Below are positions 3,272 to 29,889 of a DNA stretch of 32,000 bases, piece by piece. Location: assembly GCA_945901405.1 (NCBI GenBank), contig CAMDLH010000034.1, positions 1 to 32,000 on the forward strand, given 5' to 3'. The stretch's first letter is position 1, and the number at the start of each line of letters is the position of its first letter. Made by a program: the position numbers and the translations under genes. This DNA comes from Bordetella parapertussis. GTDB taxonomy: Bacteria; Pseudomonadota; Gammaproteobacteria; Burkholderiales; SG8-41. A model generated the notes under the pieces. That model ran no database searches. It saw nothing but the letters and a program-made list of their open reading frames with translations, and was not told where the DNA came from.

Positions 3272-3272
3272 G

Positions 3273-7547: not shown

Positions 7548-8425
7548 GCCACGGCTGCCATCTGCGCGTGCTCATCCGTCTCACGCTGCTCGCGCCGGCC
7601 GCGGCAATAGTCGCTGTCCGAACACACAAACATGCGCGCGCCCTGATCGTCGAGTATCACCTCATCCAGAAAACTGTCGGTGGCATTGCACAAGGCGCAT
7701 GGATGGTCCCAGCGTTGAATTTCAAACGGGTGATCCTCGAAATCCAGGCTGCGCACCGATGTATACGGCGGCACGGCGTAGATACGTTTCTCGCGCCCCG
7801 CGCCAAACAGTTGCAGCGCAGGATTCATGTGCATCTTCGGATTGTCGAATTTCGGTATCGGCGAAGGACGCATAAGGTAGCGCCCGTTGACGATCACCGG
7901 GTAGTCGTAGGTCGCGGCGATATGGCCGAAATGGGCGATGTCTTCATAGAGCTTGACGTGCATCGCGCCGTATTCGGCCAGTGCGTGCATCTTGCGCGTC
8001 TCGGCTTCGCGCGGCTCCAGCCAACGCAGCATTTCGGGAATCGGCACCTGATAGACGATGATTTGGCCGCTGCAAAGCGGTGTCTCGGGGATGCGATGCC
8101 GCGTCTGGATCAAGGTCGCATCCTTAGTGCGCTCGGTGGTCTTGACCCGCGTGGTGCGCACAAAGAAGTTGCGGATATTGATGGCGTTGGTGGTGTCGTC
8201 CGAACCTTGATCGATAACCTTCAGCACGTCGTCCGGGCCAATGATCGAAGCGGTCACCTGTATGCCGCCGGTGCCCCATCCATAAGGTAATGGCATTTCG
8301 CGGCTGCCAAACGGCACTTGGTAACCGGGGATTGCGATCGCCTTCAGGATCGCGCGCCGGATCATGCGCTTGGTTTGTTCGTCGAGGTAGGCGAAGTTGT
8401 AACCGCTGCCATCTGGAGTATTCAT
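7544..8425 (-). CDS. phnJ: Alpha-D-ribose 1-methylphosphonate 5-phosphate C-P lyase PhnJ
   Basis: 293 aa. Contains NFAYLDEQTKRMIRRAILKAIAIPGYQVPF, closely resembling E. coli PhnJ, and a C-terminal Cys cluster CALCNA...CSDSDYC. Confidence 0.95.
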   Translation of the reverse strand: MNTPDGSGYNFAYLDEQTKRMIRRAILKAIAIPGYQVPFGSREMPLPYGWGTGGIQVTASIIGPDDVLKVIDQGSDDTTNAINIRNFFVRTTRVKTTERTKDATLIQTRHRIPETPLCSGQIIVYQVPIPEMLRWLEPREAETRKMHALAEYGAMHVKLYEDIAHFGHIAATYDYPVIVNGRYLMRPSPIPKFDNPKMHMNPALQLFGAGREKRIYAVPPYTSVRSLDFEDHPFEIQRWDHPCALCNATDSFLDEVILDDQGARMFVCSDSDYCRGRREQRETDEHAQMAAVA

Positions 8426-9525
8426 GCGACCGCCTTGCGAGGTCCATCCTTTTTCAGGTGGCGCGCGCGCAGCTTGCGCACCAACTCGAGCTCCGACTGA
8501 AAATCGACGTAGTGCGGTAATTTCAGATGCTGCACAAAGCCCGAGGCCTCGACGTTGTCGCTGTGATAGAGCACGAACTCCTGCATCTGCGTGGGCGAAG
8601 TCACGCTCTCGCCCAATTCATCCGCGCGCAGGCTGCGATCAACCAGCGCCATCGCCATCGCCTTGCGTTCGCATGCACCAAAGCTCAAACCATAGCCACG
8701 CGTGAACTGCGGCGGCTCCGTGGCGGAACCGGCAAACTGATTGACCATCTGACACTCGGTGACAAATATCTCGCCGATTTCAATGGCGAACCCGAGTTCT
8801 TCGGGCACGACTTCCACCGCCACCGTGCCCTGACGAATCTCGCCAGCAAATGGATGGGTGTTGGCATAGCCGCGCTGCGAGGCGTATCCGAGCGCGAGCA
8901 AAAAGCCTTCGTCGGCACGCGCCAGATTCTGCAGCCGTAACGGGCGTTCCGCCGGGAACTCCATCGGCTCGCGTGTTAGATCACGCGGATCGGGATCCTC
9001 CAGCGTGGGGACTTCAGCTTCAAGCAGACCTTCATCACCCATGATTTCGGTAACACGCGGGACAACGCGTGGCGGCACTGGAGCCGCCAGCGCTGAAGTT
9101 TCCACCGCCGCCAGCGATGCCGCGGCCAACTCAAAATCCAGCAGGCGCTGCGTGTAATCGTAAGTGGCGCCCAGCATTTGTCCGCCTGGAACATCCTTGT
9201 AGGTCGCGGAAATGCGTCGTTGCAGGGACATCTTGCCGGTATCGATCGGATTCGATACGCCCAGCCGCGGCAACGTCGTGCGATACGCGCGCAACAGAAA
9301 CACCGCCTCGACAAGATCGCCCTGCGCCTGCTTGATCGCCAGCGCGGCAAGTTCCGGATCGAACAGCGAGCCTTCCGCCATCACACGATCCACGGCGAGT
9401 CCGAGCTGCTCGCGTATCTGATCGAGCGAGAGTTCCGGCACCGCGATGTTGCCGCGCCGCTTTTCGGCCAGCAGCCGCCACGAATTCAGTATCGCCTGTT
9501 CACCACCCTTGACCGCTACATACAT
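8422..9525 (-). CDS. phnI: C-P lyase core complex subunit PhnI
   Basis: 367 aa. The N-terminus MYVAVKGGEQAI matches E. coli PhnI MYVAVKGGEKAI. Confidence 0.95.
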   Translation of the reverse strand: MYVAVKGGEQAILNSWRLLAEKRRGNIAVPELSLDQIREQLGLAVDRVMAEGSLFDPELAALAIKQAQGDLVEAVFLLRAYRTTLPRLGVSNPIDTGKMSLQRRISATYKDVPGGQMLGATYDYTQRLLDFELAAASLAAVETSALAAPVPPRVVPRVTEIMGDEGLLEAEVPTLEDPDPRDLTREPMEFPAERPLRLQNLARADEGFLLALGYASQRGYANTHPFAGEIRQGTVAVEVVPEELGFAIEIGEIFVTECQMVNQFAGSATEPPQFTRGYGLSFGACERKAMAMALVDRSLRADELGESVTSPTQMQEFVLYHSDNVEASGFVQHLKLPHYVDFQSELELVRKLRARHLKKDGPRKAVA

Positions 9526-9526
9526 C

Positions 9527-10111
9527 TCAGCACTCCACGGCCGTGGTGCGGGGCAGCGCGGCGATACGCTGTCCGCAAGCGAAAACGATGTCGATGCCGC
9601 GGGGGAACAGCGCGCGCATCGCCTGAATCTCGCCCCAGCGATCCGCGCCGATGCCGGCGACGTCCAGACGCACCGGATGCAACAAGCCAGGGCCGGAAAG
9701 TTTCACGCCCGAGGCATTGGATAAATTCGCGGCCTGTATGATCAGCGTCGCGGAGCGGTCCGGATATTGCGCATCGCCGGCGCTGAATGCCGACAACCGG
9801 GGCATCATTGCTGCGTTCGTGATTAACGCGAATCGTGCCTGTGCGGGCTCCGGGGTAATCGGACATCCGCAATGAAACCGCAGATACTCCGCGACGGCGG
9901 CATCAGGCGTTTGCAGCCACAGAGGCGTCTCGAAATCGAGCAGCGTCAGGCAGATGGCCGCGGCCGCCGGCATGAGTTGTCCTGGCGCCGGCGGATTCGC
10001 CGCCATGCGCTTGATTTCTCCGGGATGCGCCATCGCGTCCGCCAGGGCGCGGAATACCTTGATGCTGTCGAAGACGGGCTGATCCAGTCCAGGCGCCAGC
10101 GCCACATCCAT
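9527..10111 (-). CDS. phnH: C-P lyase core complex subunit PhnH
   Basis: 194 aa. Contains the VFRALADAMAHPGE motif and lies between phnG and phnI. Its ATG overlaps the phnG TAA (TAATG). Confidence 0.9.
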   Translation of the reverse strand: MDVALAPGLDQPVFDSIKVFRALADAMAHPGEIKRMAANPPAPGQLMPAAAAICLTLLDFETPLWLQTPDAAVAEYLRFHCGCPITPEPAQARFALITNAAMMPRLSAFSAGDAQYPDRSATLIIQAANLSNASGVKLSGPGLLHPVRLDVAGIGADRWGEIQAMRALFPRGIDIVFACGQRIAALPRTTAVEC

Positions 10112-10590
10112 TATTTGCTTCCCCCAGCGGCTTGGGCTTCCCGAGCCATGGTGTAGAACTCAACCTTGGTGGCCGCCGCTTTGCGCGCCGCCAGATCGCG
10201 CCGCGCCGACTGCCGAGCCGCCAGTGTCGAGATTACACGGGCATTTATTTTCGCGTGATAACGCATGTCCTGAAGCATTGCATCCAGACGCGCGGCGAGC
10301 TCGGCGTGACGCGCATCGCGTCCCTGCACCCAGGCGTGTCCGGCCGTGCCATCATCCAGACTGATCGCACAACGTGTCACGGGCACTTCGCCCAGATTGA
10401 ACTTCGCACCACCCCCGCCGATGCGCCCACGCACCATGACCAATCCGGTTTCCGGCCTGCGCAGCCACTTGAATGGCGGCAACGCGCCCAGCGGCGCACA
10501 CGCTGACTCGATTTGCTCCGCACTGGCCTTCGCCAGCACGCTCATCCAGTGCCTGCGCTGCTCGATTGCCTGTAGTTGGGGCGGGCTCAC
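10111..10590 (-). CDS. phnG: C-P lyase core complex subunit PhnG
   Basis: RRHWMSVLAKA...GLVMVRGRIGGGG...RCAISLDDGTAGHAWVQGRD...VEFYTM aligns with E. coli PhnG (about 150 aa). I favour GTG 10590 (159 aa). It is preceded by GGAAAG 7 nt upstream and lies downstream of the predicted promoter. The 239-aa ORF-track version starts upstream of that promoter. Confidence 0.8.
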   Translation of the reverse strand: MSPPQLQAIEQRRHWMSVLAKASAEQIESACAPLGALPPFKWLRRPETGLVMVRGRIGGGGAKFNLGEVPVTRCAISLDDGTAGHAWVQGRDARHAELAARLDAMLQDMRYHAKINARVISTLAARQSARRDLAARKAAATKVEFYTMAREAQAAGGSK

Positions 10591-10625
10591 TATTGATCTT
10601 TCCAGTTCTTCCTTAATTGGCGGCA

Positions 10626-10659
10626 AATCTACAGGGCAAATGTGAAGATTTGATGACCA
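10626..10659 (-). promoter_or_regulatory. Pho-box-like promoter of phnGHIJKLM
   Basis: Minus strand reads TGGTCATCAAATCTTCAC (11/18 to consensus, with half-sites GTCAT and TTCAC 11 bp apart). A 10-bp spacer and TAGATT follow. Confidence 0.4.
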
Positions 10660-10682
10660 TGCGGCAACTTCGATTCGCCGCC

Positions 10683-10716
10683 CTGTCATTGTTTTGTAAC
10701 CGTCGTACGCAAGACT
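10683..10716 (+). promoter_or_regulatory. Pho-box-like promoter of the DUF1045-phnN operon
   Basis: CTGTCATTGTTTTGTAAC matches 13/18, followed by a 10-bp spacer and AAGACT. It lies about 50 nt upstream of ATG 10769. Confidence 0.45.
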
Positions 10717-10768
10717 GGTGCGCCACACAGAACTCGAGACACGCATGCTCGTCGAACAAAAGGAATCC

Positions 10769-11548
10769 ATGGGTGCGTCATCGGCTCGCCGTGCGCTGTT
10801 CTCCCCCTGCATTGATGCGCGCTTTGCCATTTATTGCGCTCCGAACGTAAACAGCGCATGGTGGAAGTTCGGTAGTGCATGGCTGGGGCGCGATGCCATT
10901 TCGTCCGATTCGACTGCGCATCGGAACCACGGCGAGCTGGACAGTCAATTCATACACCGAATTACCGCCACACCGCGCCGTTATGGCTTTCATGCGACAT
11001 TGAAGGCTCCGTTCCAGTTGTCCGCGGGGCGCGTCGCGCAACATGTTTACCTTCAGGCCGAAACACTCGCCGCGTCTCTGCGCCCAGTGCGATTGCCGCC
11101 GCCGCGCCTGCAAGTCATTGATGGATTTGTAGCATTGGGGTTTGACCGCGAAGATGCGGCGAGCAGAGCAGCGAGCGCAGCGGCAAACGCCATTGCCGCG
11201 CAATGCGTGTCATGTTTTGACAATCTGCGCGCGCGTCCGGATGCGGTGGAGATCGCGCGGCGTCAGGCCGCCGGATTAAGCGCGCGGCAGGCTTGCCTGC
11301 TTGCACAATGGGGCTATCCTTTTGTTTTTGACGAATTTCGCTTGCACTTCACGCTCACGGAGCGATTGAATCCCGCCGATCAGGAACGCGTAATCGATGC
11401 GCTGAGTCCGGCGGTGGCCGCGCTCGGCGCGGAACCATTCATGCTCGATGCACTTTCGATCTATCTGCAGCCGTCGCCTGCGGAGCCATTCGTTGCGGTG
11501 CGCCGCTACGGTTTTGACGGCAGCCTCGAAATCTACGGCAATGGTTGA
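10769..11548 (+). CDS. DUF1045 / 2H-phosphoesterase-family phosphonate metabolism protein (PhnPP-like, likely functional substitute for PhnP)
   Basis: 259 aa counted from ATG 10769, with AAGGA 5 nt upstream. Two HxT motifs (GFHATLK and LHFTLT) are typical of 2H phosphoesterases. It is fused in an operon with phnN (8-nt overlap). Confidence 0.75.
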   Translation: MGASSARRALFSPCIDARFAIYCAPNVNSAWWKFGSAWLGRDAISSDSTAHRNHGELDSQFIHRITATPRRYGFHATLKAPFQLSAGRVAQHVYLQAETLAASLRPVRLPPPRLQVIDGFVALGFDREDAASRAASAAANAIAAQCVSCFDNLRARPDAVEIARRQAAGLSARQACLLAQWGYPFVFDEFRLHFTLTERLNPADQERVIDALSPAVAALGAEPFMLDALSIYLQPSPAEPFVAVRRYGFDGSLEIYGNG

Positions 11549-15875: not shown

Positions 15876-16028
15876 TCACGGCATGCCCACGCCGCGGCCA
15901 TGAACAAAATCATCATCGTCGAATTCGTCGTCGTCTTCATCCGGAAGATCATCGGGTTCATTGAATTCGCACCACAGCGGGAGCCGCGGCAAGCGCGCAT
16001 CGATCACATCAGAGATTAATGTTTGCAT
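15876..16028 (-). CDS. Candidate unannotated 50-aa acidic small protein
   Basis: Hand translation gives MQTLISDVIDARLPRLPLWCEFNEPDDLPDEDDDEFDDDDFVHGRGVGMP*. The ATG at 16028 sits 9 nt after a -10-like TACAGT of a Pho-box promoter. It falls below the 60-aa ORF-track cutoff. Codon third-position GC is only moderate. Confidence 0.3.
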   Translation of the reverse strand: MQTLISDVIDARLPRLPLWCEFNEPDDLPDEDDDEFDDDDFVHGRGVGMP

Positions 16029-16037
16029 GGTGTATGC

Positions 16038-16071
16038 ACTGTAGCCGCGCTTCGTTACAGCGTGATGTCAC
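16038..16071 (-). promoter_or_regulatory. Pho-box-like promoter upstream of sORF/phnCDE
   Basis: Minus strand reads GTGACATCACGCTGTAAC (12/18, with second half-site CTGTAAC). A 10-bp spacer and TACAGT follow (compare phoA TATAGT). Confidence 0.4.
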
Positions 16072-16309
16072 GCCGGGACGTCCCGTACGCCACTGGAGCG
16101 AACGAATCGGGTGGATTTTTATGTCGCCGCACCAAGGCGCTCCGAATGTTTGGGGATAGTCATAGTAGTGAAATATTTACCGTACACACTTGGAGGTTTG
16201 CCGGATTCCGCGATGGCCTTAAAAGTCCAGCGCAGCTTGGAATTCCGTAATTTCGCTCGTATCGACCGCCCTCGTCCGCAACGCCATTCACTTAACAGGA
16301 GAATTTCAC

Positions 16310-19300
16310 ATGTCGCTATCAAACGTGGATCTGTCCACCTACGTACTGGTTGGTCAATACGACCTGCCCGAACCCACTCGCACCGCGGCGCCCGCCGACA
16401 GCTTGCTGGCGCAGGAAGTCTCGGCGGTGACTTACAACTGGGACACCGACACGTTGTTCGTGGTTGGTGATGGCGGCACATCGATCGTTCAGGTGACGAA
16501 GACAGGCGAGCTGATTAATTCGATGACTCTGGCGCCCGGCGGCAGTCCGCAGGGAACCGAGTTTTACGACACGGAGGGGCTGACCTATATCGGCAACGGC
16601 CAGTTTGTCATGATCGAAGAGCGGGATCGGCAGGCAGTGTTGTTCACCTACGAGGCCGGCGGCACGTTGACGCGCAGCGAAGCGCTTACCGTCGATCTGG
16701 GCACGTTCGTGCAAAACATCGGCATCGAGGGCATCTCTTATGATCCGTTAACCGGCGGATTTATCGCGGTCAAGGAGGCGCTTCCCGAAGGAATTTTTCA
16801 GACGGCCATCGATTTCGAGGCGGGTACCGCGACCAATGGATCATCCACCACCGAGAATTCAGTCAACCTGTTCAACCCGGTATTGCTCAACTTGTCGGAC
16901 TTTGCCGATGTCTTCGTGTTATCGAATTTGTCCGCCCTGAGCGGGCAGACCGATTACAGCCACCTGCTGGTATTGAGTCAGGAAGCGGGGGTTATTCTCA
17001 ACGTAGACCGTTCCGGCGTCATCTACAGTTCACTGACTATTACCTCGCCTGCCGGCAATCCCCTGACTGTTTCGGCCCAGCAGCACGAGGGCCTGACGAT
17101 GGACGCCAGCGGAAACCTGTATGTGGTCAGCGAGAACGGCGGCGGCGATTTTGATCACCCGCAGATCTGGGTCTACGCACCATCGTCGGTACCGAATCAG
17201 GCCCCAAGCGCGCTTGCGCTGACCAGTCCGGTCAATGCGATTGTAGAGAACACCAGCACGGCCACGCGGCTTAAGGTTGCCAATGTTGCGATCACCGATG
17301 ACGGTCTCGGCACGAATAACCTGACAGTATCAGGTGCAGACGCCGCCTTCTTCGAGGTTGACCGCAATGGCCTGTACCTCAAGGCCGGTACCATCCTCGA
17401 TTTCGAGACAAAGGCGAACTACAACGTCACCGTCAATGTCGATGACCCAGCGCTGGGCGGCACGCCGGATGCGAGTGCAAGCTTTGCGCTGGCGCTAACT
17501 GACGTTGCGGTGGAAACGCCACCCGTGCCCACGTTGATCATCTCCGAAGTCGCCCCGTGGTCCAGCGGCAATAGTCCGGTTGGCGCCGACTGGTTCGAGA
17601 TCACCAACACCGGCCAGATCGCCGTCAATATCAGCGGCTGGAAGATGGACGACAGTTCCAACTCTTTCGGCTCGGCGGTAACCCTGAACGGCATTACCAG
17701 CATCGCCCCCGGCGAATCGGTGATCTTCATTGAAACCAGCGATCTCGCAGGCAAGACCGCCGCTTTCCTGGCCAATTGGTTCGGCGCGAACCCGCCGGCG
17801 GGTCTGCACATCGGCAATTACTCCGGCGGGGGCGTCGGCTTGAGTACCGGCGGCGACGCCGTGAATCTGTTCAACGGCAGCGGCGTGCTCCAGGCCAACG
17901 TGGTTTTTGGCGCATCACCCGCGGGTCCATTCCCGACCTTCGATAACTGGGCGGGCATTAACAACGCGACGATTTCCCAACTGAGCGCGGCCGGCATCAA
18001 CAGCGGGTTCGTCGCGGCAAACGCGGCAAGTGAAGTCGGATCACCGGGAACGGCTGGCAAATTGTTTATCTCCGAAGTCGCGCCCTGGTCCAGCGGTAAT
18101 AGCCCCGTCGGCGCCGACTGGTTCGAGGTGACGAACACCACGGCTCGCGCGGTGAATATCAGCGGGTGGAAAATGGACGACAGCTCCGGTTCCCCTGCCG
18201 CCGCAGTCCCGCTGAGCGGCATTACCAGCATAGCGTCCGGTGAATCCGTCATCTTTATCGAAATGCCCGCCAGCGGCAATGCGGCCACCTACATCGCGAA
18301 TTTCAAGACGGTTTGGTTTGGCGACAACGCACCGGCGAACCTGCAAGTCGGCACTTATACTGGCGGCGGTGTCGGCCTGAGCACGGGCGGTGATGCGGTG
18401 AATCTCTACAACAGCGGCGGCGTGCTGCAGACCGGCATTTCCTTCGGCACTTCTCCCGCGGGCCCGCAGTTCGGAAGCTTTGACAATGCGGTTGCCTTGA
18501 GTGGCGTTGCCATTTCAAAACTCAGCGCTGTCGGGGTCAGCGGCGGATTCGCCGCGATCAACGATAACAACGAGATCGCCTCGCCGGGTGCGGTAGCAAC
18601 AGTGAATCAGGCGCCGGTGGCGGTTGACAACACGCTGTCGAGCATCGCCGAGGATTCCGGCCCCCGCACCATCAGCTTTGCCAGCCTGACGGCCAACGAC
18701 TCCAAGGGTTCGGTTACCGAAAACGCACAGAGCCTGACCATCATCGGCGTGAGCAACGCGGTTGGCGGTACCGTGAGCATCGCCGGAACGGACGTGATTT
18801 TCGCGCCGGCGCACAACTTCAACGGCCGTGCCAGCTTCGAATACACGGTGCAGGACAATGGCACGACGCGCAGCGTGAACAACTTCTTGAGCGACGCGGG
18901 CGCGGTAAGTTTCGACATTACGGCGGTCAACGACGCGCCGGAGGTTACACCCGCGACTTTTGACATAGCCGAGAATGACAGCGTGGCTGGCGTGGCGGCG
19001 GCCATCGATGCCGAGGGCGATGCTTTTACGTTTGCGCTGGAGGGCGGCGCCGATCAAGCCTTTTTCTCGATCGACGCCAATACGGGCGCGCTTTCCTTCA
19101 ACAACACACCCGATTTTGAAACGCCGGAAGACGCGGATAATGACAACACCTACGAAGTCCTGGTGGCGGCGACGGATATCTTCGGCGCCGTTGGCACGCA
19201 GACGATCAACGTCAAAGTCGGCGACGTGGTTGAGGCTGGTCTGGCCATTGACGGCGGCAACGGCAACGCTGTTCTGACGGGGGCCACCGGCAACGACACG

Positions 19301-19837
19301 ATCAACGGCGGAAACGGGAATGACTCGATTGGCGGCGGAGACGGTAACGATATCATCGGCGGCGGCAACGGTAACGACATTCTCGCCGGTGGCCGCGGCA
19401 ATGACATACTCAATGGCGGCAATGGCGAAGACACGCTGTCGGGCGGGGCGGGAATCGACAACCTGGGCGGCGGGCGCGGCAACGATTCCATTGATGGCGG
19501 CGCGGGTAGCGACATTCTTGCCGGCGGCAGCGGCATGGACACATTCAACTATCACGCCCTGGCGGATCGCGGCGCGGCGGGCGACGAGATCACCGATTTC
19601 GCCGCTGGCGCCGGCGGGGACGTGTTGAACCTTCACGACCTGCTGGACACGTTCTCCGGCATTGACGGCGGCACGCACGGCAATGCATTTAGCGGCGGCT
19701 TTGTGCGGTTTACCCAAGCGGGAAGCAACACCCTCGTTGAAGTCGATGGCAATGGCGGCGGCGACGCTTTCATCACCCTGGTGGGACTAACGAATACGGT
19801 ACTGGGGCAACACGATACCCAGAACTACATACTTTAA
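16310..19837 (+). CDS. Large RTX-type secreted protein with an N-terminal beta-propeller-like domain (SdiA-regulated/YjiK-type), cadherin-like modules, two lamin-tail domains (LTD), Ca-binding nonapeptide repeats and a T1SS C-terminal target domain
   Basis: 1175 aa. AGGAG lies 9 nt upstream of the ATG, and there is no N-terminal signal peptide. LTD signature ISEVAPWSSGNSPVGADWFE(I/V)TNT...NISGWKMDD occurs twice. GGNGNDxIxGG repeats span about 19247-19546. The tail GDEITDFAAGAGGDVLNLHDLLD resembles the VC_A0849-type T1SS signal. Confidence 0.85.
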   Translation: MSLSNVDLSTYVLVGQYDLPEPTRTAAPADSLLAQEVSAVTYNWDTDTLFVVGDGGTSIVQVTKTGELINSMTLAPGGSPQGTEFYDTEGLTYIGNGQFVMIEERDRQAVLFTYEAGGTLTRSEALTVDLGTFVQNIGIEGISYDPLTGGFIAVKEALPEGIFQTAIDFEAGTATNGSSTTENSVNLFNPVLLNLSDFADVFVLSNLSALSGQTDYSHLLVLSQEAGVILNVDRSGVIYSSLTITSPAGNPLTVSAQQHEGLTMDASGNLYVVSENGGGDFDHPQIWVYAPSSVPNQAPSALALTSPVNAIVENTSTATRLKVANVAITDDGLGTNNLTVSGADAAFFEVDRNGLYLKAGTILDFETKANYNVTVNVDDPALGGTPDASASFALALTDVAVETPPVPTLIISEVAPWSSGNSPVGADWFEITNTGQIAVNISGWKMDDSSNSFGSAVTLNGITSIAPGESVIFIETSDLAGKTAAFLANWFGANPPAGLHIGNYSGGGVGLSTGGDAVNLFNGSGVLQANVVFGASPAGPFPTFDNWAGINNATISQLSAAGINSGFVAANAASEVGSPGTAGKLFISEVAPWSSGNSPVGADWFEVTNTTARAVNISGWKMDDSSGSPAAAVPLSGITSIASGESVIFIEMPASGNAATYIANFKTVWFGDNAPANLQVGTYTGGGVGLSTGGDAVNLYNSGGVLQTGISFGTSPAGPQFGSFDNAVALSGVAISKLSAVGVSGGFAAINDNNEIASPGAVATVNQAPVAVDNTLSSIAEDSGPRTISFASLTANDSKGSVTENAQSLTIIGVSNAVGGTVSIAGTDVIFAPAHNFNGRASFEYTVQDNGTTRSVNNFLSDAGAVSFDITAVNDAPEVTPATFDIAENDSVAGVAAAIDAEGDAFTFALEGGADQAFFSIDANTGALSFNNTPDFETPEDADNDNTYEVLVAATDIFGAVGTQTINVKVGDVVEAGLAIDGGNGNAVLTGATGNDTINGGNGNDSIGGGDGNDIIGGGNGNDILAGGRGNDILNGGNGEDTLSGGAGIDNLGGGRGNDSIDGGAGSDILAGGSGMDTFNYHALADRGAAGDEITDFAAGAGGDVLNLHDLLDTFSGIDGGTHGNAFSGGFVRFTQAGSNTLVEVDGNGGGDAFITLVGLTNTVLGQHDTQNYIL
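17534..18589 (+). repeat. Tandem in-gene duplication of a 528-bp (176-aa) LTD-containing module
   Basis: Copy 1 is 17534-18061 and copy 2 is 18062-18589. Long identical stretches exist at DNA level, for example tctccgaagtcgc, ggcgccgactggttcgag and ggcttgagtaccggcggcgacgccgtgaatct versus ggcctgagcacgggcggtgatgcggtgaatct. Confidence 0.85.
19247..19546 (+). repeat. RTX nonapeptide (GGxGxDxUx) coding repeats
   Basis: About 10 consecutive units, for example GGNGNDSIG, GGDGNDIIG, GGNGNDILA and GGRGNDILN. Confidence 0.9.
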
Positions 19838-19862
19838 TCCGCCGCGAGAATCAGGACATGCG

Positions 19863-19883
19863 CCGTTCCCGAGGCGGGAACGG
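19863..19883. terminator. Hairpin between the convergent RTX and GT4 genes (candidate terminator)
   Basis: CCGTTCCCG-AGG-CGGGAACGG is a perfect 9-bp stem. There is no clean U-tract on either side (TTGCATCT follows on the plus strand). Confidence 0.4.
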
Positions 19884-19951
19884 TTGCATCTGCGCGGTTG
19901 GATTGGACCCAGCGCCGGGCGACTGGAGAACGCTTGGAGAACTTATGGCGC

Positions 19952-21190
19952 CTACGGGGCCGGCGACTGGTATAAGCCTGTTTCTTGAACTTCGTGCGTC
20001 TCACCCGTGCGCAAAATCGCCGCACGAAATACCGCTTCGGTGCGCTCCACGATCGCGTCCCACCCCTGCGCCAACGCGGCCTGCCGCGCGCGCAGCCGCA
20101 TCGAGTTTCTTAACGTGATGTCGCCCGCCACTTGCAGCGCGCCCGCTAGCAGCAGGTCCTCGCGGCCCGGCGACACCGCCAGTCCATTTTTTTGATTGCG
20201 TATCAGCTCATGCGCCGCGGCATGATCGTAGGCCACGACGGCCAGCCCGCTGGCCATGGCTTCGAGCGTGACGTTGCCAAAAGTCTCCGTCAGGCTCGGG
20301 AAGATAAACATATCCGCGCTGGCATAATGTTCCGCCAGGGATCGGCCGGTTTGAAAGCCGGCAAATACCGCATCGGGGCAATCGATCTGCAACTGCCGGC
20401 GCAAAGGGCCGTCTCCTACGATCACTAGTTTTACGCGTACCTGCGCACCGCGCAGCGAGTTGTAGCAGCGCACGACCGCCGCCAGATTTTTCTCAGCTGC
20501 CAGTCTGCCCACCGACAGGATTACGACTGTATCGGGCGCAGCGCCCCAGGATTTCCGCAGTTCAGCGGAATTTTGATACGGAGAGAATATTTTCGTGTCC
20601 ACGCCGCGCGGTACCACTGACAGTCTGTCGAACGCCATGCCCGCGAGTTCGCGCTTCAGTTGTTGGGTGGGAACCATCGTGCAATCGGCGTCGTTGTGAA
20701 ACTTTCGCATATAGGATTCAATCGCGCCCTTCAGCCAGCCGATACCATAAAACCGGCTATACGCATGGAAGTTGGTGCGAAAGTCGGTGCTCACCGGTAT
20801 TTGCAGCGAGCGCGCCGCTCGCAATGCAGACCATCCCAACGGCCCTTCCGTGGCAATGTGAACAATGTCGGGCCGCGCGGCCCGCCACAGGCGCCGCAAC
20901 TCACCGCCCGCGGGAAAACCCATCCTGAGTTGTTGGTACATGGGAATCGGTATCCCGCGTACCAATAGCTCCTGAAACCGGCCTCGACGTGCCGGCGTCT
21001 CGTTGTTGTGCTGCCGGGGGCGGACAAGGGTAAGTTCATGCCCCTTGGCCAGCAATCCCTCCACCACCTTTGACGTGGTGTGCGCGACTCCGTTGATATC
21101 CGGCGGATAGGTTTCCGTAACGAATGTGATGCGCAGTTTTTCGGCAGTTGCGAAGACGGAGCCGCGCCGCGTTTGAATGGGTGTGTTCAT
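19952..21190 (-). CDS. GT4-family glycosyltransferase, Agt-like candidate glycosyl-diacylglycerol synthase
   Basis: 412 aa counted from ATG 21190 (the ORF-track start 21199 is TTG). The N-terminus RITFVTETYPPDINGVAHT and C-terminal FPSLTETFGNVTLEAMASGL are typical GT-B/GT4 motifs. It is preceded by the best Pho box in the window. Confidence 0.8.
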   Translation of the reverse strand: MNTPIQTRRGSVFATAEKLRITFVTETYPPDINGVAHTTSKVVEGLLAKGHELTLVRPRQHNNETPARRGRFQELLVRGIPIPMYQQLRMGFPAGGELRRLWRAARPDIVHIATEGPLGWSALRAARSLQIPVSTDFRTNFHAYSRFYGIGWLKGAIESYMRKFHNDADCTMVPTQQLKRELAGMAFDRLSVVPRGVDTKIFSPYQNSAELRKSWGAAPDTVVILSVGRLAAEKNLAAVVRCYNSLRGAQVRVKLVIVGDGPLRRQLQIDCPDAVFAGFQTGRSLAEHYASADMFIFPSLTETFGNVTLEAMASGLAVVAYDHAAAHELIRNQKNGLAVSPGREDLLLAGALQVAGDITLRNSMRLRARQAALAQGWDAIVERTEAVFRAAILRTGETHEVQETGLYQSPAP

Positions 21191-21197
21191 GCACGGC

Positions 21198-21231
21198 AAT
21201 TTAAAGGACTTTCACGACAGACATATGACAG
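21198..21231 (-). promoter_or_regulatory. Pho box promoter of the GT4 gene
   Basis: Minus strand reads CTGTCATATGTCTGTCGT (16/18 to CTGTCATAWAWCTGTCAY). A 10-bp spacer GAAAGTCCTT and TAAATT follow. The ATG lies only 7 nt after the -10. Confidence 0.65.
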
Positions 21232-21291: not shown

Positions 21292-21336
21292 TTGTCAAGG
21301 AAACGTCATCAAACTTTCATGTTTACCAGACATATT
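21292..21336 (+). promoter_or_regulatory. Triple-half-site Pho-box promoter of the 4-TM membrane protein gene
   Basis: TTGTCAA-ggaa-ACGTCAT-caaa-CTTTCAT has three heptamers at exact 11-bp phasing. A 10-bp spacer and CATATT (21331-21336) follow. Confidence 0.55.
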
Positions 21337-22023: not shown

Positions 22024-23691
22024 TCATGCCGCCATGCGCGCGCGCAGCATTTCTTTCAATACCTGCCGGCGGATGGTCTTGTTGGTCTGGCCTTGGGGTG
22101 CCCACCACCATCCCTCGGCGGACATCTGCTGCGCCGCACGCGCGAATCGCGTGCAGAATTCCTCGTAGTCTTGTTCGTCAAAATTGAGACTGAAAATCAG
22201 GCGCCCGCTCCCCACCCAGCTAAGTGCGATGCCGTGGCGGCGCAGATAGAACTGGAAGAGCCAGTTGTAGCGCGCCGGTTTCGTGAACAATACTGTCCAC
22301 ACCGTCGACATCGCCGCCACCCGCACTGGCAGGTCTTCGCGATCCAGCCGCTGGTTAAGCTGATCCGCGCGAGCGTGCCAGAGTGCATCGATATTTTCAT
22401 AGAGCGCTTTTACTTGTGGCGACTCCAGGCGCTGCAGAAACTCATTCATGGCGCCCATCACGTAAGGATGGGCGTTGAAGGTGCCGCGCGCAAAGCAAAT
22501 ATCGGCGGGGCGTTCATTGCCGAATCTGCGCATGAGGTAGGCCTTGCCGCAAAGCACGCCCACCGGCAGCCCGCCGCCGAGTGTCTTGCCATAGGTTACA
22601 AGGTCGGCCCGCACGCCGAAGTATTCCTGCGCACCGCCGCGCGCGAGCCTGAATCCCAGAAACACTTCATCAAAAATGAGCACGATGCCGCGCTCGCTGC
22701 AAACCTTGCGAAGCGCTTCCAGCCAGTGAGTGTAGGCAACACGGTGGAATGCCGCACTGCGTGCGCTATCCACCAGCGTCGAATCCGTCGGCGCCGGGCG
22801 GTTCGGATGCAGGGCTTGCAACGGATTGACCAGCACACAAGCGATGTCGCGGCGGTTACGCAAAACGCGCAATGTCGAATCATGCATCTCGCGCAGCGTG
22901 AACGTTTGACTGGCGGGCGGCAGCGGGTTGCCGGGGCCGGGCTGCACATCGTCCCACCAGCCGTGGTAGGCGCCGGTAAAGCGCACCAGTTGAGTACGGC
23001 CCGTGTGATAGCGCGCAAGCCTTACAGCCTGCATGACGGCCTCCGTGCCGGACATGTGAAACGACACTTCATCCATGCCCGATATGGCGCGCAGCCGTGT
23101 CACGTTATCCAGCACGCACGGATGATACGAACCCAGCGCCGGCCCCAACTCGCGAACACGTTGCGCACCCTCGTCAATACAGGATTTATAGAAATCCAGT
23201 CCAAACAGATTGACGCCGTACGACCCGGTGACATCGATAAACCGGTTGCCGTCCATGTCCATAAGCCAAACGCCGTCACTCTTGTTCCAGTAGCTGCCGA
23301 TACGCAGGTGTTGCTGCAACACCTCGCGAAACTGAAACGGCACGCGGTAGCTGCTGATGAACTGCAAATCCGAAATCATCGGCTTGCTGGCGTCGGTATG
23401 TGCCAGCGTGAGCGGACTCTGGTTGCGCAAGCCGGCGCCAAGTTCCTTGAGTGCGTGGCGCCGCTGATTGGCAATATCGGCGGGCGCGCCGTCGGTGGTG
23501 AACCACTGCCCGTCCTCATACGCATAGCCCGGAACCCAGCGTGCCATGCGCTGCGCCCAGCGCACGTGCCCTGTCAGAGATGGATATTTTGCAAAGGACA
23601 ACTCGATACGTTGCTTGATTCTCCGCAGCACGTATACAGCGGCTGGCAACAAGACAATGAGTACGGCAATTAATACTGTTGACTCAGGCAT
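22024..23691 (-). CDS. Membrane-anchored class-III (HemL/GSA-aminomutase-like) PLP-dependent aminotransferase with a roughly 170-aa N-terminal extension
   Basis: 555 aa counted from ATG 23691. Has an N-terminal TM helix [17 protein letters not shown]. The PLP-lysine region [22 protein letters not shown] matches HemL [38 protein letters not shown] is typical of the fold. Confidence 0.8.
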   Translation of the reverse strand: [555 protein letters not shown]

Positions 23692-23719
23692 GGCATTCGT
23701 CCCCGGAAAACCTATGTCT

Positions 23720-23737
23720 ATGACAAATTTATGAAGA
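23720..23737 (-). promoter_or_regulatory. Pho-box-like site between the aminotransferase and psd starts
   Basis: Minus strand reads TCTTCATAAATTTGTCAT (14/18). It lies 28 nt upstream of the aminotransferase ATG and ends 2 nt from the psd ATG on the opposite strand. No good -10 sits at the canonical 10-bp spacing (TAGGTT lies 5 bp away). Confidence 0.3.
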
Positions 23738-23738
23738 A

Positions 23739-24611
23739 ATGATGAAAATCCGGGAATTGGCGCAAAAACTCGCTTTACAGGAAGACCTGAATTTCCTCCT
23801 GAGCAACCGCATTCCCCGGCTCGCGGCAACCCACTTCATGGGCTGGTTCAGCCAGATTCGCCAGCCCTGGGTATGCAGCGCGTCTATTGCGGCATGGAAA
23901 GTTTTTTCCGATCTGGACCTGAGTGAGGCGCGAAAACAGAAGTTCGACAGTCTTCACGACTGCTTCGTGCGCGAACTCGTTGCCGGCGCACGCACGCCCG
24001 ACCCCGATCCGAACATACTGGTCAGTCCCTGCGATGGCATCGTCGGCGCCTGCGGTCAGGTCGAGGGCGGCAACGTATTCCAGGCGAAGGGATTTCCCTA
24101 CAGCTTGAATGATCTCTTCGGCAATGAACACGCCGCGCGGCCTTGGCATGACGGCGTCTACGTGACCGTGCGTATCACTTCGGCGATGTACCACCGGTTT
24201 CACGCGCCCTATCGCGGGACAATGCGGCAAGTGCGCTACATCGCGGGCGATACTTGGAACGTAAATCCGATCGCGCTCAAGCGCGTTGAAAAATTATTCT
24301 GCAAGAATGAGCGGGCGGTGCTGTCGCTTGAGATTGGAGCGCAACGCTATCCCGTGGCGCTGGTTCCCGTGGCGGCGATCCTGGTGGGGGGAATTCGCCT
24401 GCACGGACTGGACACGCTGTTTCACACGCGTTACGGCGGCCCCACGGATTTTAGTTGCACGGTTGATTTTGACAAAGGCGATGAACTGGGCTGGTTTCAG
24501 CATGGCTCCACGATTCTGCTGTTCGCGCCCAGGGGGTTTCGTCTGGCGGATCAAATTGCGCTTGGCGCGCGCGTCAAGGCGGGCCAGATACTGATGCGCC
24601 TACCCGGCTGA
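23739..24611 (+). CDS. psd: Phosphatidylserine decarboxylase proenzyme
   Basis: 290 aa. Collinear with E. coli Psd: DPNILVSPCDG, YHRFHAPY, and the self-cleavage motif FQHGSTILLF (G-S-T). Confidence 0.9.
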   Translation: MMKIRELAQKLALQEDLNFLLSNRIPRLAATHFMGWFSQIRQPWVCSASIAAWKVFSDLDLSEARKQKFDSLHDCFVRELVAGARTPDPDPNILVSPCDGIVGACGQVEGGNVFQAKGFPYSLNDLFGNEHAARPWHDGVYVTVRITSAMYHRFHAPYRGTMRQVRYIAGDTWNVNPIALKRVEKLFCKNERAVLSLEIGAQRYPVALVPVAAILVGGIRLHGLDTLFHTRYGGPTDFSCTVDFDKGDELGWFQHGSTILLFAPRGFRLADQIALGARVKAGQILMRLPG

Positions 24612-26879: not shown

Positions 26880-26913
26880 GCTTCATGAATCCGTAATCCA
26901 GCGCTTGCATAAT
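26880..26913 (+). promoter_or_regulatory. Pho-box-like promoter of the secreted metallophosphoesterase
   Basis: GCTTCATGAATCCGTAAT matches 12/18, followed by a 10-bp spacer and CATAAT (5/6 to TATAAT). Confidence 0.45.
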
Positions 26914-26934
26914 GTATCGGTGAACTATAATTTT

Positions 26935-27906
26935 ATGTTTAAAAACAATTACTTACGATTAGCGGGCATGGCGGTGGCCATTGCATTGGCGGCCCCGCAG
27001 GTTTCAGCCCCGGCGGCGGCGGAACGCTTCAGTTTCGCCGCCATAGGAGACATGCCCTACGCGCTACCCGGCGATTTTGAGCGCTTTGCCCGGCTCATCG
27101 AGCGTATTAACACCGCACACCCCGCCTTCACCATTCACGTCGGGGATTTCAAACCCGGAAACTCGCGCTGTGGCGATGAACACTTCGCAAAAATTTCGGA
27201 TATGTTCGAGACATTTGACGCGCCGCTCATTTACACACCTGGAGACAACGAGTGGACTGATTGTCATCGAGCCGACAATGGCGGGTTTGATCCCCTCGAA
27301 CGGCTCGGCAAGGTGCGCGAGCAGTTTTTTCCCAATCCGGCGCAAAGCCTCGGCCGCGACAAAATCGCGCTCGAGCATCAAGGCACTGATACGCGTTACT
27401 CCGCCTATATCGAAAACCGCCGCTGGGAACGCGCGGGCGTGTTGTTCGCCACCCTGCATATCGTCGGCAGCAATAACAACTTGCAAAGAGACCATGTGGC
27501 GGTCAATGAGTACATCGCGCGCAATGTCGCCAATCTGGCGTGGATGCAGGCAACGTTTGAAAGCGCCCGCAAGCGCAACGCGAAAGCCGTAGTGCTGGCG
27601 TTTCAGGCAGATCTGCGCTGGGAGTTAAATGCCAGCGAACAACAACGCGCGGGCTTTACCGACACGTTGACCGCTTTGCGGCGACATGCGCGCGCGTTCG
27701 GCAAACCGGTGTTGGTTGTGCATGGCGACCGGCACCGCTTTGTCGTCGATAAGCCGCTCTACGAGAACCGTCAACTGATTTACAACGTGACACGATTGAT
27801 GGTTTTCGGCGCAACTGAAGTTCAGGGGGTCATGGTACATGTGGACACCGAAGACCCCGATGTGTTCAGCTTTCGCCCGCTGACGGCTCCGGAAAACATT
27901 CGGTAG
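26935..27906 (+). CDS. Secreted calcineurin-like metallophosphoesterase
   Basis: 323 aa counted from ATG 26935, with signal peptide MFKNNYLRLAGMAVAIALAAPQVSAPAAA. Has the motifs IGDMPY, HVGDF, PGDNEW and VHGDRH. Confidence 0.8.
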   Translation: MFKNNYLRLAGMAVAIALAAPQVSAPAAAERFSFAAIGDMPYALPGDFERFARLIERINTAHPAFTIHVGDFKPGNSRCGDEHFAKISDMFETFDAPLIYTPGDNEWTDCHRADNGGFDPLERLGKVREQFFPNPAQSLGRDKIALEHQGTDTRYSAYIENRRWERAGVLFATLHIVGSNNNLQRDHVAVNEYIARNVANLAWMQATFESARKRNAKAVVLAFQADLRWELNASEQQRAGFTDTLTALRRHARAFGKPVLVVHGDRHRFVVDKPLYENRQLIYNVTRLMVFGATEVQGVMVHVDTEDPDVFSFRPLTAPENIR

Positions 27907-28038: not shown

Positions 28039-29889
28039 TTAACTACCTATCACACCGCCATCGTTCTTGCGTATGACCAACGTCGCCGAACGCGGCCGTC
28101 CGCCCGATGCGCCATCGGGCCACGAACTCACTGCCTTGGGCGCTTTCGGATTGCTGCGTTCGCTCGCGGTTTCGCCAGGATGCTGAATGTTGACGAACAT
28201 GGTGCGGCCGTCGGGCGTGGTGATGACACCCGTCACCTCGCAGCCGGCGGGGCCGGTGAGAAAGCGCCTGATCTCGCCGGTGCGTATATCCGCTGCCAGC
28301 ATCTGATTGTTGCCCATGCGCTCGTAATCGCCTTTGTGCATGGCGCTGGTCGAGACGTCGGTTTGTATCCATAAAATACCCCCGTCATCAAACCATAATC
28401 CATCCGGACTGCCGAACGCGTCACCATTGATATTGCCGCGCTTGGCCGGATCAGAATGTCGCGGATCGCCCGCCAGCACGAAAATGTCCCAATTGAATTT
28501 CAGCGCAGCCGGATCGTTGCCCAGCTCACGCCAACGGATAATGTGTCCGAAGGTATTGTTGGAACGCGGATTGGCCGCATTCAAGCCGGGAACTTGCGGC
28601 GTGCCTCGGCACGCGTTGTTGGTGAGCGTGCAATACACCTCGTTGGTGCCGGGGTGAACCGCGATCCACTCGGGGCGGTCCATTTTGGTGGCGCCGACGG
28701 CATCCGCCGCCGCGCGCGTGCGCACCAGCACGTCGGCCTGATCCCTGAAACCGCCCGCTGGAGTCAGCTTGTTCTTGCCGAACGTGAGTTCGACCCACTC
28801 GCCGCCGCCGTCTTCGTGAAACTTCGCGACGTAAAGCGTGCCATGATCGAGCAGATTGCGATTGGCATTGCGGTCGTTCGGGTTCCACGCATCGCGCGAC
28901 ACGAACTTGTAGATGTACTCGAACTGACGGTCATCCCCCATGTACAACGTGACACGGCCATCGCGCCCCACCGCCGGCCATGCGCCTTCGTGACTAAAGC
29001 GCCCTAGCGTCGTGCGCTTGACCGGCGTGGATCGCGGATCGTACGGATCGACCTCGACCACCCAGCCGAAGCGGTTGGGCTCGTTGGGATGTTTGCCCGC
29101 ATCGAAACGCTCGTCGAATTCATGCCAACGATAACCGCGGCCTTTTTCCCGCACGCCGTTGCGCCGCTGGTCCTCGGTGATTGCGCCGGAATTGACGAAA
29201 TAACCGTCCCAGTTTTCCTCGCATGTGAGATAAGTGCCCCAAGGCGTATACCCGTGCGCGCAATTGTTGATGGTGCCCAAACACTCGGCGCCGGTTGCAT
29301 CCGCGGCCGTGCGCAAGTACGGCGATCGCGCCGCCGGCCCGGAAAGCGTCATTGGCGTGGCCGCCGTGATACGCCGCGCGAAACGTGACGGACGCACCAC
29401 TTCCCAGCGCCCGTCCCGCGCGCGCACTTCCACTACGGACATGCCATGCGCGTTTTGCGATTTGCGGACTTTCGCCGCACTCCAGTTGGCAAACGCGTCC
29501 GTATGCAACAGGCCGTCGTCGGTATACTCGTGATTGATCGCAAGCAATGCGCTGCTACTACTGGCGCTTCCAAGGGGCAGCGGGAAGTAATGCACGCTGT
29601 CGTGATGCATGCCGGCTTGCAACGCCTGATCCTCGGCGCTGTTACTCGCATCCTGCCGAAACGCCGGCGACCCGGACGCGTGCCCGATCGGATCGCCCCA
29701 CGCGAGCAACACCCTCGCGTTGTAACCCTCGGGCACCCGCACCATGTCCGCGGCGGACCCGGCGACGCTCTTGAATCCCAACGTGCCTTCGCGCTTTAAT
29801 CCGCCGCTCGCGCAACCCGCCAACGACAGCGGCAATGCGCCGGCGGCCGCGAACGAGGCGGCGCCTTTGAGCAGTTCGCGGCGCGACAA
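28039..29889 (-). CDS. phoX: Tat-secreted alkaline phosphatase PhoX
   Basis: 616 aa. Has the twin-arginine signal SRRELLKGAASFAAAGA and the PhoX motif NNCAHGYTPWGTYLTCEEN. The apparent start is TTG (no in-frame ATG upstream). Confidence 0.9.
   Translation of the reverse strand: MSRRELLKGAASFAAAGALPLSLAGCASGGLKREGTLGFKSVAGSAADMVRVPEGYNARVLLAWGDPIGHASGSPAFRQDASNSAEDQALQAGMHHDSVHYFPLPLGSASSSSALLAINHEYTDDGLLHTDAFANWSAAKVRKSQNAHGMSVVEVRARDGRWEVVRPSRFARRITAATPMTLSGPAARSPYLRTAADATGAECLGTINNCAHGYTPWGTYLTCEENWDGYFVNSGAITEDQRRNGVREKGRGYRWHEFDERFDAGKHPNEPNRFGWVVEVDPYDPRSTPVKRTTLGRFSHEGAWPAVGRDGRVTLYMGDDRQFEYIYKFVSRDAWNPNDRNANRNLLDHGTLYVAKFHEDGGGEWVELTFGKNKLTPAGGFRDQADVLVRTRAAADAVGATKMDRPEWIAVHPGTNEVYCTLTNNACRGTPQVPGLNAANPRSNNTFGHIIRWRELGNDPAALKFNWDIFVLAGDPRHSDPAKRGNINGDAFGSPDGLWFDDGGILWIQTDVSTSAMHKGDYERMGNNQMLAADIRTGEIRRFLTGPAGCEVTGVITTPDGRTMFVNIQHPGETASERSNPKAPKAVSSWPDGASGGRPRSATLVIRKNDGGVIGS

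Follow-up and report, generated by a model that had tools for sequence, protein, structure and literature searches.

Propellers of the SdiA-regulated family (PF06977) include the C-terminal domain of Escherichia coli YjiK, the structure of which is solved (3qqz), and CarP (PA0327) of Pseudomonas aeruginosa, which is regulated by Ca2+ and whose mutation disturbs Ca2+ homeostasis (PMC10574481). Bacterial lamin tail domains (LTDs) accompany hydrolases of the phosphoesterase type (PMC6085458): deletion of the LTD lowers the in-vitro activity of the Shewanella nuclease ExeM (PMC6085458), and the LTD-bearing extracellular nucleases EndA1 and EndA2 of Flavobacterium johnsoniae are both induced by depletion of inorganic phosphate (Pi) (PMC8115612). 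In Nodularia, the PF13449 protein NSP_RS03145, an 'atypical alkaline phosphatase', belongs to the phosphorus (P)-limitation stimulon (PMC9846622). Here we describe a gene at positions 16310-19837 of a 32-kb stretch of DNA (contig CAMDLH010000034.1, positions 1 to 32,000; the window) whose product joins a PF06977 propeller to two LTDs. A preliminary description of the window had pointed out that LTDs commonly accompany extracellular nucleases and phosphatases, of which ExeM and EndA1/EndA2 are indeed instances (PMC6085458, PMC8115612). The finding draws its weight from the family to which the protein belongs, an uncharacterised one with high conservation, a wide distribution and an association with Pho functions; a literature search by family and domain names together with phosphate or Pho regulon found no publication characterising propeller-LTD proteins.

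Architecture and spread of the propeller-LTD core

The gene is the longest open reading frame (ORF) of its neighbourhood and is preceded by AGGAG at 16297-16301, 8 nucleotides (nt) 5' of the ATG. It is real beyond doubt, since 1385 relatives at E <= 1e-10 were found among 5.8 billion proteins. The following parts were recognised (aa, amino acids).

16310-19837 (+): complete, monocistronic gene with ATG start, an uninterrupted ORF of 1175 aa plus stop
16310-17194 (+): five-bladed YjiK/CarP-type (PF06977) propeller, aa 1-295 (Pfam, PDB match, AlphaFold2 (AF2) model, Foldseek, invariant columns)
17195-17515 (+): cadherin-like beta-sandwich spacer within the conserved core, aa 296-402 (AF2 strands 301-397; second Pfam Cadherin stretch)
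17516-18058 (+): LTD repeat 1 plus C-terminal extension, aa 403-583 (PF00932 at 405-532)
18059-18595 (+): LTD repeat 2, aa 584-762, where the cross-phylum core ends (PF00932, homologue alignments)
18596-19234 (+): lineage-variable Cadherin_5/Big_9 (765-855) and Cadherin_4/Cadherin (866-970) modules, aa 763-975 (Pfam)
19280-19549 (+): ten RTX nonapeptides GGxGxDxUx, aa 991-1080 (regular-expression count; PF00353, HemolysinCabind)
19583-19834 (+): VCA0849-type C-terminal signal for type I secretion, aa 1092-1175 (NCBIfam TIGR03661)
19841-19898 (+): stable hairpin directly 3' of the stop codon (core stem 19863-19883; -32.1 kcal/mol, z -3.08)

Query residues 1 to about 765, that is the propeller, the cadherin-like module and the two LTDs, are aligned everywhere among the relatives. 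Identity over this core amounts to 58-76% in Sphingobium, Phycisphaera, Blastocatellales, Verrucomicrobiota and those Bacteroidota that bear a type IX secretion system (T9SS). The C-terminal half is swapped lineage by lineage, and conservation of the modules at aa 763-975 is limited to close relatives. In a scan with one genome per species the propeller was 69-87% identical over 300 aa in at least 530 genomes of at least seven phyla (Pseudomonadota, Bacteroidota, Cyanobacteriota, Planctomycetota, Acidobacteriota, Verrucomicrobiota, Chloroflexota). Carriers include Betaproteobacteria, Acetobacteraceae, Reyranella, Methylococcaceae, Chitinophagaceae, Flavobacterium, Nostoc, Dolichospermum, Aphanizomenon, Cyanobium and Chloroflexales as well as Planctomycetota, Acidobacteriota and Verrucomicrobiota. 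When 1.84 billion representatives were searched exhaustively with HMMER, 279 clusters (50% identity) were obtained at E <= 1e-30; in their members, up to 4100 aa long, the propeller takes variable positions. At least one LTD is kept by 124 of the 142 new cluster representatives, and stand-alone forms that consist of the core plus export or spacer domains only, for example Flavobacterium proteins of about 900 aa, make up the majority (112 of 142).

The propeller was identified by PF06977 on aa 33-275 (147.5 bits, cut-off 21, E 5e-43; model positions 21-241 of 249), while the Phytase-like family PF13449 gave a weak partial match on aa 35-149 (34 bits, cut-off 27.6; model positions 4-136 of 284). 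The spacer behind it features the invariant acidic columns E313, D330, D344 and D379, and in one homologue a faint Cadherin match between the SdiA-regulated domain and the LTD corresponds to it. The LTD repeats (403-583 and 584-762) are 63% identical to one another; a PDB sequence search with the first as query gave no match. The exactly ten RTX repeats are consecutive (PF00353, 59.9 bits), and TIGR03661 (T1SS_VCA0849) matches aa 1092-1169 with 31.3 bits at a cut-off of 17.6. An AF2 model of the whole core (aa 1-765) shows confident domains, and Foldseek with this model added no information. None of 200 shuffled sequences folded as well as the hairpin behind the gene, which is likely a terminator; the downstream glycosyltransferase gene (19952-21199) is convergent with 16310-19837. 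A separate scan for sigma-70 promoters and terminators gave no signal above chance.

The whole protein contains no cysteine and is strongly acidic (K+R 2.4% versus D+E 10.9%), and its N-terminus lacks a hydrophobic stretch (Kyte-Doolittle maximum 1.1 for a 12-aa window in the first 50 aa). With the C-terminal signal and the tandem nonapeptides it thus has the features of an RTX substrate. The export signals attached to orthologous cores vary by lineage between a signal peptide with a T9SS tail, PEP-CTERM-like tails and RTX. Proteobacterial members start straight at the motif VDLSTYVRVGRYDLPEP and end in RTX repeats, and it is at this same motif that the mature protein begins in homologues with a signal peptide. 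Bacteroidota members combine a signal peptide with a Por_Secre_tail, and other lineages have signal peptides and other tails, often with an extra LTD in front. In many homologues the core is moreover preceded at the N-terminus by a recurring segment about 200 aa long ('MAL..G.IAFVGFNADGNDNIAFVAL...'). It occupies 9011-9650 of locus L050 and the N-termini of L006, L020, L028, L030, L034, L053, L056, L061, L064, L069, L073 and P0035; in L050, the one example scanned, it had no Pfam match and was followed just by Calx-beta.

The domain order given in the preliminary description, with no signal peptide, two LTDs, about ten RTX repeats and a VC_A0849-type secretion signal, was borne out by Pfam, NCBIfam, hydropathy and repeat count. 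Its remark that the window has no type I secretion system (T1SS) genes also holds: among all candidate gene ORFs of at least 150 aa in the 32 kb, none for an ABC protein, a membrane fusion protein (MFP) or an outer membrane protein (OMP) of such a system was found. The third structural claim, a propeller of the phytase class, survives only as far as the propeller is acidic-bladed. The AF2 model of aa 1-300, for which 32 homologues were used (pLDDT 92.7, pTM 0.92), comprises 20 strands in five four-stranded blades, with the N-terminal strand 11-18 closing blade 5. E. coli YjiK (3qqz) was the sole solved structure reached by sequence (E 4e-14) and ranked first when Foldseek was run against the PDB (E 1.5e-14, TMt 0.73-0.76); after it came generic NHL propellers and bacterial glutaminyl cyclases with five blades. 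The Foldseek top 50 contained no beta-propeller phytase (BPP), PF02333 did not match the protein at E <= 0.1, and HHalign returned a probability of 3.2% against a BPP alignment and of 2.5% against a PF13449 alignment too shallow (3 sequences) to be informative. The propeller is therefore a YjiK/CarP-type domain, and its likeness to phytases is distant and consists of an acidic blade motif only; membership of the BPPs is excluded by these results and by its five rather than six blades.

In two alignments the inner strand of each of blades 1-5 starts with an invariant acidic residue (E36, E89, E140, D200, E260). The B-C loops of the five blades contribute the invariant D54, E103-E104-R105, R107, K155-E156, R234 and E275-N276, and R122 and N136 are invariant as well. 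Going by standard propeller topology, the inner-strand and B-C-loop residues would share one face around the central tunnel. The net charge of the propeller is -28, five of its seven Arg/Lys residues are invariant, and about half of the invariant positions are kept in YjiK at 22% identity. Such a set has the pattern of a putative metal site beside an anion site. The LTDs have net charges of -9 and -7.

Phosphorus genes near the core and predicted Pho boxes

The link to phosphorus was examined in 80 loci of the species scan plus locus L081, with everything within 10 kb taken as the neighbourhood. A P-scavenging domain (PhoA-type alkaline phosphatase, PhoD, NPP, GDPD, EEP, Phytase-like, BPP, PhoX-like or pstSCAB) is present in 29 of the 81 loci, which belong to several phyla, and in 14-15 of the 29 it lies in the same ORF as the propeller. 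With about ten genes of this kind among the thousands of a genome, a few per cent of loci would be expected to have one nearby by chance. The following cases were recorded.

PhoA-type alkaline phosphatases: L020, L034, L059, L070
PhoD: L041
NPP-PhoD fusion: L076
GDPD plus Phytase-like proteins: L046, L064, L076
EEP + Phytase-like + BPP-phytase + RTX proteins: L064, L073, L075
T9SS-exported EEP and PhoX-like proteins: L011, L013, L016
pstSCAB: L002, L013, L039, L062

Fusion of the propeller to PhoD, PhoX-like or EEP domains was found in 30 of the 142 cluster representatives, several of which carry two of these, and fusions to 5'-nucleotidase C (P0112) and metallophosphatase (P0117) also occur. 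A Pfam census of the 119 immediately flanking ORFs of 80 loci had shown neither a conserved neighbour nor a P gene among its top 25 families. This census was misleading because adjacent giant phosphatases had been clustered with the target via shared Ig/RTX/T9SS domains; once the adjacent giant exoproteins were re-scanned, the phosphatase association became visible. Giant ORFs of Cyanobacteria and Alphaproteobacteria, 3200-4300 aa in length, have the propeller-LTD core strung together with EEP, PhoD or PhoX-like domains and, judged by this domain content, look like single-chain multi-enzyme P-scavenging machines.

L047 227-13195: giant core-phosphatase ORF
L020 6125-17674: giant core-phosphatase ORF
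L006 9359-18931: giant core-phosphatase ORF
L061 9005-18988: giant core-phosphatase ORF

The control region of the gene in the window was compared with that of its closest orthologue, which is 81% identical overall (L001/L082).

16159-16174 (+): Pho-box-like direct repeat GTCATAGTAGTGAAAT in gene orientation, 136 nt 5' of the ATG (pattern match, orthologue conservation)
16054-16070 (-): second Pho-box-like repeat, TGACATCACGCTGTAAC, facing a small divergent ORF and phnCDE
15876-16028 (-): this small divergent ORF, 50 aa, very acidic (MQTLISDVIDARLPRLPLWCEFNEPDDLPDEDDDEFDDDDFVHGRGVGMP), kept in the orthologous locus, no Pfam family
GCA_945878615.1 8077-15245: orthologous locus L082, the gene and its small-ORF partner amid the methyl-cycle genes metK and ahcY

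Ten nt after the first box there is a -10-like CACACT (16185-16190), and together they form a candidate PhoB-dependent promoter of the gene. The second box is followed in 3' direction on its own strand by 10 nt, TACAGT, about 11 nt and the ATG at 16028, and hardly any position of the block 16037-16075 differs between the window and L001. The small ORF, annotated as 'hypothetical protein' in NCBI, thus has a Pho-box-like site of its own and a near-leaderless geometry. Its counterpart in L001 (9539-9679, minus strand) has 47 aa and shares the motif '...PLWCEFNEPDDLPDEDDDEFDDD.F...'. Present just in the window and in L001/L082 and absent from the other 79 loci, it is lineage-specific. In L001/L082, where the gene stands between metK and ahcY without phn genes, the small ORF and both boxes are retained amid diverged sequence; the counterpart of the first box reads GTCATATGGTTGCAAC, followed by CACAAT. 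Since the orthologue keeps the boxes without the phn genes, the gene has a control region of its own, and it is not the adjacency to phnCDE that is conserved. The argument from a 460-bp control region shared with phn, made in the preliminary description, is accordingly weakened: the region holds two Pho-box-like sites and the 50-aa ORF, and the orthologue has the boxes without phn.

Within the window the exact pattern GTCAY-N5-YKNMAY occurs eight times against 2.15 expected, a count reached by none of 100 shuffles, although the pattern was defined after seeing sites, that at 16159-16174 included; three of the matches (2001, 10642, 30113), however, were new. All eight are gene-oriented and in promoter regions, namely those of btaA, phnG, phnPP, the gene described here, the Mpo1-like gene, UDP-glucose dehydrogenase, phoX and phnC2. 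TGTCAY-N5-TGTCAY with up to two mismatches likewise gave eight matches, in promoter regions only. The consensus follows the Pho boxes of E. coli and rhizobia; the strict E. coli form CTGTCAT-N4-CTGTCAT with up to three mismatches gave three matches in the window against 1.37 expected and none before the gene. Upstream of homologues, GTCAY-N5-YKNMAY is found in 3 of 12 proteobacterial cases versus about 0.009 expected per region. Triple tandem repeats of PyTTAAPyPy(T/A), the cyanobacterial Pho box, are found in 8 of 21 cyanobacterial upstream regions versus 1.1% of background windows, these loci being partly close relatives that form about four independent groups. Six Flavobacterium loci (L040, L042, L048, L051, L066, L071) have GTTAATCATAANGTAACTA, or TTTAATCATAAGGTAACCC in L066, at -79 to -83 relative to the start of their homologue, and in an Acetobacteraceae locus (L068) GTTAACCATAGGTTAACCA is found at -67; all of them may be Pho boxes specific to their lineages. 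No publication reporting induction of this gene family by Pi limitation was found.

The whole window is a phosphate-starvation island for P scavenging and membrane-lipid remodelling, and each of its recognisable genes is assigned to P-starvation functions.

227-1291: PhoX-like ORF
2066-4046: btaA (DUF3419) and btaB
3785-4867: PlcP-like metallophosphoesterase
4898-10830: phnM-L-K-J-I-H-G
between phnG and 16310-19837: DUF1045/PhnPP, then phnCDE
19952-21199: GT4 glycosyltransferase
beyond GT4: phosphatidylserine decarboxylase, UDP-glucose dehydrogenase, chalcone-isomerase-like protein
28039-29889: Tat-PhoX
after Tat-PhoX: second phnCD
21214-21231 (-) and 21293-21320 (+): Pho-box sites of the GT4/Mpo1-like promoter region

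PhoX, the PhoX-like ORF and the PlcP-like ORF confirm that the gene is embedded among phosphatases, as had been noted before. The synteny of the window is not conserved, since BLAST of its PhoX, PhnCDE and PhnGHI against the flanks of the other loci matched generic ABC ATPases only. Of all Pho boxes in the window, the best (CTGTCATATGTCTGTCGT, one mismatch to the E. coli consensus) lies in the divergent promoter region of the GT4 and Mpo1-like genes, the other strand of which has three half-sites in a row at 11-bp spacing. Also within the island, a 333-aa ORF at 26905-27906 (+) belongs to no Pfam family, and the class-III aminotransferase ORF at 22024-23829 (-) has about 180 extra residues before its domain, perhaps because its start is mis-called or because another domain has been added.

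Possible functions of the core

We consider it likely that the protein serves the acquisition of extracellular phosphorus in some way. The preliminary description had arrived at a secreted, Ca2+-dependent protein for scavenging or tethering organic phosphorus. This was largely borne out, for reasons that are in part different: the fusions, the neighbourhoods and the predicted Pho boxes speak for such a role, whereas the arguments from phytase homology and from a promoter shared with phn are weaker than proposed. That the propeller itself acts as a Ca2+-dependent phosphoesterase is a tentative proposal, to which we give somewhat less than an even chance. It is favoured because of the active-site-like conservation, the persistence of this conservation in YjiK and the predominance of stand-alone forms.

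From the architecture, fold, conservation, fusions, neighbourhoods and motifs described above we infer PhoB control, Ca2+ binding, catalysis and a substrate, and the resulting account of a PhoB-regulon exoprotein that is folded by Ca2+ and acts with a catalytic propeller on extracellular organic phosphorus is again tentative, falling just short of an even chance. Upon Pi limitation, PhoB would activate the gene from its own promoter at the Pho box 16159-16174. The acidic, Cys-free chain would be exported unfolded and C-terminus first by a T1SS encoded elsewhere, and outside the cell the block of ten nonapeptides, the cadherin-like spacers and the propeller at the N-terminus would be folded by Ca2+. 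The working unit would be the conserved core (aa 1 to about 765). On the top face of its propeller, a ring of invariant Glu/Asp residues, the presumed Ca2+ site, would be joined by nearly all of the invariant Arg/Lys residues, the presumed site for the phosphate ester. We assume that such a propeller would be a Ca2+-dependent phosphoesterase, most likely a diesterase, and that the two LTDs would hold a polymeric or surface-bound substrate, for example extracellular DNA. The products would presumably be finished by PhoX-type monoesterases and imported by the Pst/Phn transporters encoded around the gene. Generalised, the YjiK-type propeller with its LTD pair would constitute a new family of extracellular Ca2+-dependent phosphoesterases beside PhoA, PhoD, PhoX and PafA, horizontally spread over at least seven phyla including the bloom-forming Nostocales and wired to the Pho regulon in each, which we regard as doubtful.

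Several points weigh against a catalytic propeller in the Pho regulon. No PF06977 protein has a known catalytic activity, YjiK being a structure without function and CarP being tied to Ca2+, and apart from generic propellers no solved enzyme matched the propeller model in Foldseek. The clustering of the invariant residues in space is deduced from topology, the packing of the domains in the model of the core is without confidence (pTM 0.49), and the net-acidic LTDs argue against simple electrostatic binding of DNA. Immediate neighbours are unconserved in most loci, 52 of the 81 loci are without a nearby P gene, and the chance level set against the 29 of 81 is a general estimate rather than a matched random-locus control. 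The definition of the Pho-box pattern after seeing sites and the relatedness of the cyanobacterial loci count here as well. Finally, fusion to several different phosphatases equally fits a non-catalytic module for binding or anchoring.

This last point leads to the strongest alternative, in which the core would be non-catalytic and would, within P scavenging, bind or tether by way of Ca2+ bridges. It would capture polymers or particles that bear phosphate (extracellular DNA, Ca-phytate, Ca-phosphate), or hold partner phosphatases at the cell surface, and so raise the local substrate concentration for PhoX, PhoD and nucleases. The occurrence of the same core with many catalytic domains (PhoD, PhoX-like, EEP, 5'-nucleotidase C, metallophosphatase, NPP) is typical of accessory modules, and a role in targeting or substrate handling, rather than an enzymatic one, is ascribed to LTDs (PMC6085458). 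The lack of a known enzyme in PF06977 fits this role, as do the nearest folds after YjiK, namely NHL propellers that bind ligands and the receptor-binding platform of a phage. Stand-alone forms, however, predominate, and the very high conservation with invariant acidic and basic side chains, which are predicted to lie on one face and extend to YjiK, would resemble a metal-dependent active site, so that we hold a purely binding role to be rather unlikely.

It is improbable that the gene encodes a common surface adhesin of the RTX/cadherin type, or a protein of the biofilm matrix, that has no specific part in phosphorus nutrition and whose position in a P island is incidental. Giant bacterial adhesins are typified by cadherin/Ig-like modules, RTX repeats and export through a T1SS, some homologues are labelled 'outer membrane adhesin like protein' or 'VCBS repeat-containing protein', and the orthologue in L082 resides amid housekeeping genes. 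Yet it is the adhesin-like modules that vary, whereas the propeller and the LTDs are conserved, and fusion or clustering with phosphatases and nucleases recurs in several phyla. The predicted Pho boxes are conserved with the gene and not with its neighbours, and general scans of the window, run without a specific profile, revealed no LapG/LapD-type genes and no repeat-rich stalk. Giant RTX adhesins of the LapA type have an N-terminal retention module with a LapG cleavage site, LapG/LapD partners and long arrays of identical repeats; the N-terminus here is the propeller and there are only 3-4 Ig/cadherin modules.

More improbable still is a Ca2+-sensing or Ca2+-buffering exoprotein in the manner of CarP, in which the propeller would handle calcium and not phosphate esters. 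The abundance of Ca2+-binding modules and the disturbed Ca2+ homeostasis of the CarP mutant (PMC10574481) would suit it, but the relation to CarP is one of Pfam family membership only, and the family associates with P-scavenging enzymes and Pho boxes rather than with Ca2+ transport or CarSR-type regulators. A cytolytic or toxic RTX protein, suggested by sub-threshold NCBIfam matches of the RTX block to hemolysin families, is hardly conceivable and was rejected, as these models match the RTX repeats alone (66.9 bits versus a cut-off of 1000) and there is no hydrophobic pore-forming region and, in the window, no acyltransferase gene or toxin operon.

The interest of the family follows from the part that extracellular phosphatases play in P-limited lakes, soils and oceans, where they set the rate of organic-P recycling; each newly recognised family, such as PhoX and PafA, has shifted the gene-based estimates of this capacity. 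Because the module is annotated merely as a 'YjiK', 'SdiA-regulated' or 'lamin tail domain' protein, current surveys of P-cycling genes miss it. A catalytic propeller would amount to a new enzyme class. A binding module would for the first time assign a function to bacterial LTD-propeller cores, and would offer a way into the question of how substrates are captured by giant multi-phosphatase exoproteins. Either way, a testable biochemical hypothesis is at hand for the orphan family PF06977, to which YjiK and CarP belong.

Relation to known systems

The C-terminal domain of E. coli YjiK (3qqz) is from the same Pfam family, has five blades and is the best match both in sequence and in fold. The blade motifs in common comprise E89, E104-R105-D106, N136, E140, K155-E156, E260, D265 and E275, while E36, D54, R107 and R234 of the propeller-LTD family are not kept in YjiK. 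YjiK is only 22% identical, small, and without LTDs, RTX repeats or Pho context. CarP likewise has a propeller of this family and is linked to calcium, its likeness to the present protein being Pfam family membership only; it is small, under the control of CarSR and Ca2+, has neither LTD nor RTX, and no association with phosphatases was seen.

Beta-propeller phytases (PF02333) are six-bladed and Ca2+-dependent. In common with them would be an acidic propeller that binds Ca2+ and presents phosphate esters, and hence a similar general chemistry, and the blade motifs QTEGMVVDQETGFLYIGQEN and QHEGLTMDASGNLYVVSENGG are locally alike; the five blades here set the protein apart from the BPPs, of which it is not a member. 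The PF13449 domains of Pho-induced giant exoproteins of cyanobacteria show a weak reciprocal cross-match in Pfam, PF06977 being found on a Nostoc PF13449 protein. They have acidic 'xEG...D' blade motifs and the same genomic company (GDPD, EEP, BPP, RTX) as the propeller family, but PF13449 is a different Pfam family and its match here is limited to aa 35-149. To our knowledge a catalytic role is not established for PF13449 either.

ExeM and EndA1/EndA2 are, like the protein described here, secreted or surface proteins with LTDs, and they are hydrolases with recognised nuclease domains (EEP, Endonuclease_1), whereas here the propeller is the only candidate for a catalytic domain. T1SS-exported RTX enzymes such as serralysin-type proteases and RTX lipases show the same order of an N-terminal functional domain, RTX repeats and a C-terminal signal. 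Dependence on Ca2+ would be common to them, in which it serves folding outside the cell, to PhoX and PhoD, and to the present protein. PhoX and PhoD also share the Pho-regulon context with this gene, and a PhoX is encoded 8 kb away. The functional domain here is, however, unrelated to those of the proteases, the lipases, PhoX or PhoD, and the T1SS genes are unlinked.

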